From the NCBI GenBank assembly GCA_964016885.1, contig OZ024752.1, forward strand, positions 46,438,001-46,502,000: a stretch of 64,000 nt of DNA, read 5' to 3'. Positions 31,472 through 31,546 of the stretch are shown here, in pieces (within the stretch, counting starts at the first letter, position 1; each line of letters begins with the position of its first letter). Source of the stretch: Eledone cirrhosa. Lineage: Eukaryota. Below the pieces are notes generated by a model, which saw only the letters and a list, made by a program, of their open reading frames with translations, ran no database searches and was not told the origin of the DNA. The position numbers and the translations under genes are program-made.

Positions 31472-31546
31472 ATATATTTTATCTGATGAGGACGTGTACT
31501 GAAAAAACACCACAGTACCCTCCGAAATATATATAATAAAATATAT
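31472..31546 (+). ncRNA. Canonical minimal type I hammerhead ribozyme
   Basis: Stem I atatattttat/ataaaatatat (11 bp), CTGATGA 31483-31489, stem II gga/tcc + gtactg/cagtac, GAAA 31524-31527, tatata, TA. Confidence 0.88.

Follow-up and report, generated by a model that had tools for sequence, protein, structure and literature searches.

Does the hammerhead-like motif at positions 31472-31546 of this stretch of the Eledone cirrhosa genome specify a self-cleaving ribozyme, what kind of repeat carries it, and what might it do there? The window (the whole 64,000-nucleotide stretch of DNA that was analysed) contains the motif letter for letter as described in a first-pass annotation, both by sequence and by descriptor scan; the 11 bp stem I, the full core, the G10.1-C11.1 pair, and the palindromic stem III claimed there were all confirmed from the sequence. 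The features of the locus are as follows:

31422..31456, no strand: (TA)n target tract, left of the insertion
31454..31593, plus strand: solo, 5'-truncated pseudo-LTR (pLTR) fragment, about +40 to +174 of the predicted transcript, by homology
31454..31458, plus strand: remnant of the family's splice-donor-like GTATGT (GAG followed by GTATGT in family copies)
31472..31482, plus strand: hammerhead stem I, 5' arm, 11 of 11 positions paired with 31536-31546, all A-U
31483..31489, plus strand: catalytic core CTGATGA, i.e. C3-U4-G5-A6-U7-G8-A9, from the sequence
31490..31523, plus strand: stem II, comprising 3 bp, a C.C mismatch, an extra G-C pair, a bulged U, 6 bp, and an 11-nt loop, from the fold
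31524..31535, plus strand: G12-A13-A14, palindromic stem III ATATATAT, and H17 = A, from the sequence
31536..31546, plus strand: 3' arm of hammerhead stem I; serves also as the 3' strand, opposite 31524-31532, in a competing hairpin
31590..31702, no strand: (TA)n-rich target tract, right of the insertion

The features of a type I hammerhead are present: that is, the core CUGANGA, GAAA, UH, and stems I and II. At the base of stem II, GGA (31490-92) pairs with TCC (31521-23), a pairing that includes G10.1-C11.1; in the outer helix, GTACTG (31496-31501) pairs with CAGTAC (31513-18); and between these helices CGT faces CC. GAAA occupies 31524-27, the palindrome ATATATAT at 31527-34 takes in A15.1 and U16.1, H17 is A31535, and the predicted cut is 3' of 31535. 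A descriptor requiring a stem I of at least 6 and a stem II of at least 3 matched three sites in the window (15074, 31483, and 41671) and none in each of 300 local shuffles. The Rfam hammerhead models gave no match for the motif at the gathering threshold or at E <= 10; a match to an Rfam model is not, however, defining for the hammerhead fold.

Folding points to a requirement for two copies. Intramolecular closure of stem III costs 2.8 kcal/mol and has a pair probability of 0.0; the trans duplex has 8 pairs, at -3.2 kcal/mol; and when two copies are joined in tandem in silico, the fold of lowest energy is the double hammerhead (-30.4 vs. -26.0 for two open monomers). The fold, together with the literature on Penelope-like elements (PMC4209133), bears out the earlier proposal of a minimal hammerhead with a palindromic stem III that cleaves as a dimer. 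We conclude that identification of 31472-31546 as a type I hammerhead, with predicted activity in the dimer alone, is supported. The cut would need two copies paired through stem III, either the two pLTRs of one transcript or tandem copies, and the element's protein would likely assist.

In a genome rich in TA, an (AT)4 palindrome says little by itself, and alignment within the young family shows little stem covariation. Comparison between families is more informative. In 544 kb of fetched DNA the descriptor gave 134 hits, dominated by one family of related copies, and stem III is self-complementary in 123 of them. Its sequence differs by family (ATATATAT; ATATGTAT, which self-pairs via two G.U; ATGCGCAT; ACGATCGT; ACTAGT; and AGTACT), and both other stems covary between families: stem I as TTTAT/ATAAA, GCTGT/ACAGC, and ACTGC/GCAGT, and stem II as GGA/TCC, AAG/CTT, and GGT/ACC. 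These data decide against a chance look-alike derived from AT-rich, microsatellite-derived sequence. Such an origin would suit a stem I made up of A-U pairs, the (AT)4 stem III, the adjoining (TA)n tracts, and the lack of an Rfam match; against it stand the empty shuffles, the constant position of the motif in the pLTRs of an element encoding RT and GIY-YIG domains, and the change of all three stems together between families, and we give it practically no credence, the cross-family covariation having already refuted it.

The earlier claim that palindromic stems III recur across families holds in part. For TGCGCA (core at 15633), CGATCG (core at 41172), and CTAATTAG (core at 13412, minus strand), a CTGANGA core is present. 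CAATTG, CCGG, and CTTCGAAG do follow GAAA in the window, but no intact hammerhead was recovered for them by a scan reaching 130 nt. CTGANGA occurs 28 times in the window, vs. 13.8 expected. Two sister-family hammerheads, at 15074-15130 and 41671-41728 (plus strand), have stem III ATATGTAT and A-U at 10.1-11.1, and keep the C.C mismatch; GGTATGT precedes them by 43-46 nt. A third family is represented at 15400-15720 by a head-to-head pair whose stem III is ATGCGCAT and whose stem II contains a C.U mismatch; the core of the minus copy is changed. The hammerhead at 41172-41292 (plus strand) combines a stem II domain of 96 nt with stem III ACGATCGT and a C.C mismatch, and has relatives at two fetched loci (L021 and L111). 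Further CTGANGA cores lie at 13104, 35359, and 19228 (plus strand) and at 4455, 28087, 12963, and 13412 (minus strand). They lie in repeats that look like other hammerhead-bearing families, some of them damaged.

The stem II mismatch is a recurrent feature. In the 110 hits whose stem II is long, pairing at position 4 is seen in 5%, vs. 82-100% for the other seven positions; the opposed bases at position 4 are C/C in 94 hits and C/T in 6. A C.C (or C.U) mismatch at this position recurs in six hammerhead families with different stems. It is absent from the Hydra table of Craig et al. (PMC8557442), and a literature search returned no paper on a C-C mismatch in hammerhead stem II, although Lunse et al. 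2017 may already describe such variants. In the literature searched, the recurrent mismatch at position 4 was not found in print.

The hammerhead lies within a dispersed repeat, 31454-31593, for which 50 matches at 93-100% were found among 40 candidates scored of 994. Exact matches to a core pattern of the wider family number 9,694 across the 3.0-Gb genome, and many of them belong to a sister subfamily, which has ATATGTAT and a different loop 2; the pattern in that listing fixes C at both stem II mismatch positions and so says nothing on the mismatch. There are 3,781 matches to the ATATATAT form and 130 to the closest subfamily. Within the window, 49543-49668 (plus strand) and 50234-50335 (minus strand) are fragments of the same pLTR family, consisting of the downstream part only, with the long 3' end. 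At another site in the genome (G000:C1:63697639-63697899), four family cores lie within 260 bp, one on the minus and three on the plus strand, the plus cores 65 bp apart.

A direct repeat pair 3.85 kb apart led to the parent element, which is about 4.1 kb long (L091 and L121) and reads, in order: pLTR, ATG, RT motifs, linker, GIY-YIG, a 3'UTR of about 1.2 kb, pLTR, and (TA)n. Thirteen long copies were fetched. Direct pLTRs are present at both ends in seven, SDKT (DKT instead of DKG) in ten, a CxCx5C linker before a C-terminal GIY-YIG in eight, and a late CNLC in nine; the C-terminus carries CNLC and CLH (a CxH motif), and the GIY-YIG domain has no CxxC between VY and YIG, i.e. no CCHH. Family copies are seen inserted in (TA)n, and loose ends run into TA runs. 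Because the reading frames are broken in all 13 long copies, the longest element frame being 444 aa, no active parent was found. The 444-aa piece has 67 homologues, many with PF26215, including two named ones from Octopus species and one from Hydra. Pfam gave nothing above cut-off for seven ORF pieces of the parent, and a genome search with the Pfam GIY-YIG model did not return it; the best 30 of the 10,596 candidates from that search are other Penelope-like families, with CxxC between VY and YIG. The possibility that the TGA of the hammerhead core serves as the stop codon of the ORF was rejected, since about 1.2 kb separates the end of the ORF from the 3' pLTR downstream.

These features place the parent, by motifs rather than by a tree, as a putative Hydra-clade Penelope-like element. 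The C-terminal EN+ elements described as the Hydra clade (Craig et al. 2021, PMC8557442; bioRxiv 10.1101/2021.04.23.441226) share with it DKT, the CxCx5C linker, the C-terminal CxH, an endonuclease without CCHH, (TA)n targets, a hammerhead near the 3' end, and inverted 5'-truncated partners. The element differs from them in its 4.1 kb length and clear pLTRs, published members being generally <3 kb, a size that is typical and not defining. The 25 Hydra hammerhead rows in the supplement of PMC8557442, Hydra-1_oBim among them, have a stem III of 3-4 bp with a loop of 1-3 nt, and none contains the hammerhead sequence of this family. Literature searches listed no paper on this family. The pLTR hammerheads of metazoan Penelope-like elements (Cervera and De la Pena 2014, PMC4209133) are, as here, of type I, located in the pLTR, with G10.1-C11.1, a long helix II, a small palindromic helix III, and U-rich or AU-rich flanks; they too occur mostly as solo copies or opposite-strand pairs and are dimer-dependent, as is predicted here. 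Their consensus has an extra base after A9 and a helix I of 3-5 bp, whereas here there is no extra base, stem I is 6-11 bp, the palindrome is 8 nt, and the C.C mismatch follows 3 bp of stem II.

The copy at 31454-31593 is 92% identical to the pLTR of the full-length copy L121 and up to 97% identical to dispersed copies, its homology ends in (TA)n on both sides, and its 3' end is the short 3' end of the family. Because it starts at about +40, it has no TATA box, no start site, and no donor G, the G of the donor-like GTATGT having been lost at the 5' junction with (TA)n. Stem II has arms of 12 and 11 nt in this copy, vs. 10 and 10 in 65 of 68 family copies; the two insertions fall in a GT repeat and a C run, could be assembly errors, and cost 0.5 kcal/mol in the fold (-8.4 vs. 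-8.9 kcal/mol). The GT insertion is seen at one other locus (L119; G000:C3:288500441, minus strand), where the copy gives way immediately past stem III to another repeat; it looks as though a TA-inserting element had used the (AT)4 of stem III as its target. The motif, which had been called the best intact candidate, is therefore that at most inside the window; measured against its own family it is a damaged copy.

In 137 nt of context the probability of stem I in this copy drops to 0.02; GAAA and stem III instead pair with the downstream arm of stem I, in a competing hairpin that also appears in 70 of 76 family copies folded locally. The locus contains no tandem partner and no head-to-tail array. 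Promoter and partner being absent, and the hairpin competing, the copy is most likely an inert passenger. Cleavage in vivo would have it act on a host read-through transcript with a compatible stem III partner and so affect host RNA. The core is intact, the insertions keep the layout of 3 bp and C.C at little energetic cost, ATATATAT can pair with the ATATGTAT of 15074 or 41671 on the same strand or with any copy in trans, and 41671 has the same inner 8 nt in its stem I arms. However, the closest compatible partners are 10 and 16 kb off, stem I is predicted hardly to form in context, no host exon is evident by eye among window ORFs of at least 110 aa, and published hammerheads of Penelope-like elements cut poorly even as dimers (PMC4209133); we consider cleavage of this copy in vivo improbable. 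We conclude, with high confidence, that the hammerhead lies in a truncated solo pLTR copy of a Hydra-clade Penelope-like retrotransposon inserted in (TA)n, with activity predicted in the dimer only.

The ends of family copies bear on which RNA is copied. Among 41 copies chosen by likeness to the 31454-31593 copy, 24 start at -5 to +6 of an Inr-like A, 28 end at +170 to +185, and 11 end at +262-280; 13 of 30 loci have a head-to-head partner. Copies anchored on either side of the cut, scored by eye among 100 listed for each side, run across it: 94 of the 3'-anchored copies cross the cut site and 3 end in stem III, and 97 of the 5'-anchored copies continue more than 4 nt beyond the cut, 3 leave within 4 nt, and none runs straight into (TA)n at the cut. 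Because genomic copies are not bounded by the cut site, the copied RNA was likely uncut; uncut RNA is thus, judging from copy ends, the likely template for reverse transcription. Priming on (TA)n by a cleavage-made (UA)4 end was rejected, as copies do not end there, and cleavage as the setter of 5' ends was rejected by the copy-end positions. The same positions bear on whether 31454-31593 is a unit of a non-LTR retrozyme, a tandem, circular-RNA element, rather than a plain pLTR fragment. A type I hammerhead inside a short, non-coding, high-copy repeat would suit a retrozyme, and pLTRs are the proposed origin of retrozymes (bioRxiv 10.64898/2026.07.22.740005); yet relatives occur solo or head-to-head, the locus has no array, and copy ends fit the predicted start site and two downstream sites rather than the cut site, which leaves this reading very improbable.

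A similar picture is described for Poseidon PAc of Anolis (Frangieh et al. 2024, PMC11167929), in which there are two internal RT starts, no reads end at the cut, core mutants still insert, and cleavage is protein-assisted and needs protein. Shared with the family here are two preferred 3' ends (an optional tail), copies of uncut RNA (likely here), and AT-rich targets. In Poseidon PAc, however, the RT start sites are 111-118 nt inside the ORF and the start codon is part of the hammerhead region, which overlaps it, whereas in the present family the ATG comes only after the hammerhead and both 3' ends, and the tail measures about 100 nt.

The start of the parent element has a layout resembling that of a promoter followed by an intron. 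Among 20 loci with the body start, all related and including one duplicate pair (L106 and L107), ATCACT at the predicted start is kept in 10, with a TATA box at -30 in 9 of these 10; a donor-like site in sense is kept in 11 (GT in 11, GTATGT in 7), 6 loci lacking the region and 3 matches to inverted pieces having been set aside. AG at the pLTR-body junction is kept in 16 of 18 loci that reach the junction, and the ATG follows 44-52 nt after it. Numbered on the L121 copy, the order is donor-like GT (+39), core (+67), predicted cut (+117/118), junction (+278), and ATG (+326). Between the donor-like and acceptor-like sites lie about 240 nt (212-240 in the 10 copies with sense donor and start site), and this predicted intron spans the entire hammerhead and both usual 3' ends. 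It is A+T-richer and holds the upstream AUGs, 3-7 per copy, in 9 of 9 copies, exon 1 having none and one exon 2 having one; because the copies are kin, the AUG and A+T pattern counts as one weak observation. The sister family (15074 and 41671) has GGTATGT 41-46 nt before the core in 4 of 5 copies, and the other families are without it. A search for an intron-less genomic copy gave no match to the predicted junction with 1 mismatch allowed, a result that would fit intron retention and no intron equally. Contigs from three sequencing runs of unknown kind, all from one sample, have loose ends at three family boundaries (the start and the two 3' ends); they contain no joint over the predicted intron and carry no weight on splicing. 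The hammerhead and both usual 3' ends are thus predicted, on these sequence signals, to lie inside a 5'UTR intron of about 240 nt behind a TATA/Inr-like promoter, an arrangement that we did not find in print.

Penelope of Drosophila virilis (Schostak et al. 2008, PMC2377424) resembles this prediction in its start site in the upstream pLTR, in a splice donor 40-46 nt downstream of the start, and in keeping the intron in genomic copies. It differs in having an internal TATA-less promoter, as against the TATA box at -30 here, and in its 75-nt intron, which ends at hammerhead helix I (PMC2377424, PMC4209133), whereas the predicted intron here would contain the whole hammerhead.

We propose, tentatively and as a possibility that we rate somewhat below an even chance, both that splicing would act as a switch between message and template, the intron holding the hammerhead, both RT starts, and the upstream AUGs with at most one exception, so that spliced RNA would be translated and unspliced RNA copied or cut, and that the C.C/C.U mismatch of the six families would mark an undescribed hammerhead subtype, perhaps through contact with stem I or with protein. 

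In our main reading, which is separate from that proposal, the parent would be transcribed from the TATA/Inr promoter in the upstream pLTR; RT would start at +174 or +273 on uncut, unspliced RNA and proceed back towards the cap; such internal starts would yield the many short solo and head-to-head copies; and the product would insert in (TA)n. For the copy at 31454-31593, RT would have come to a halt at about +40. Only RNAs that carry two copies would be substrates of the ribozyme; the usual proposal for its role is the trimming or removal of tandem read-through RNA (PMC4209133, PMC6765202).

The locus by itself matters little, being one damaged copy among thousands. The family to which it belongs gives a clear, high-copy picture of a Hydra-clade pLTR, with promoter-like motifs, ends, and ribozyme, that is absent from the published description. 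Both the role of the hammerhead in Penelope-like elements and the reason for intron keeping are stated to be open (PMC8557442, PMC11167929); should the predicted intron prove real, one simple test in this family would link the two.
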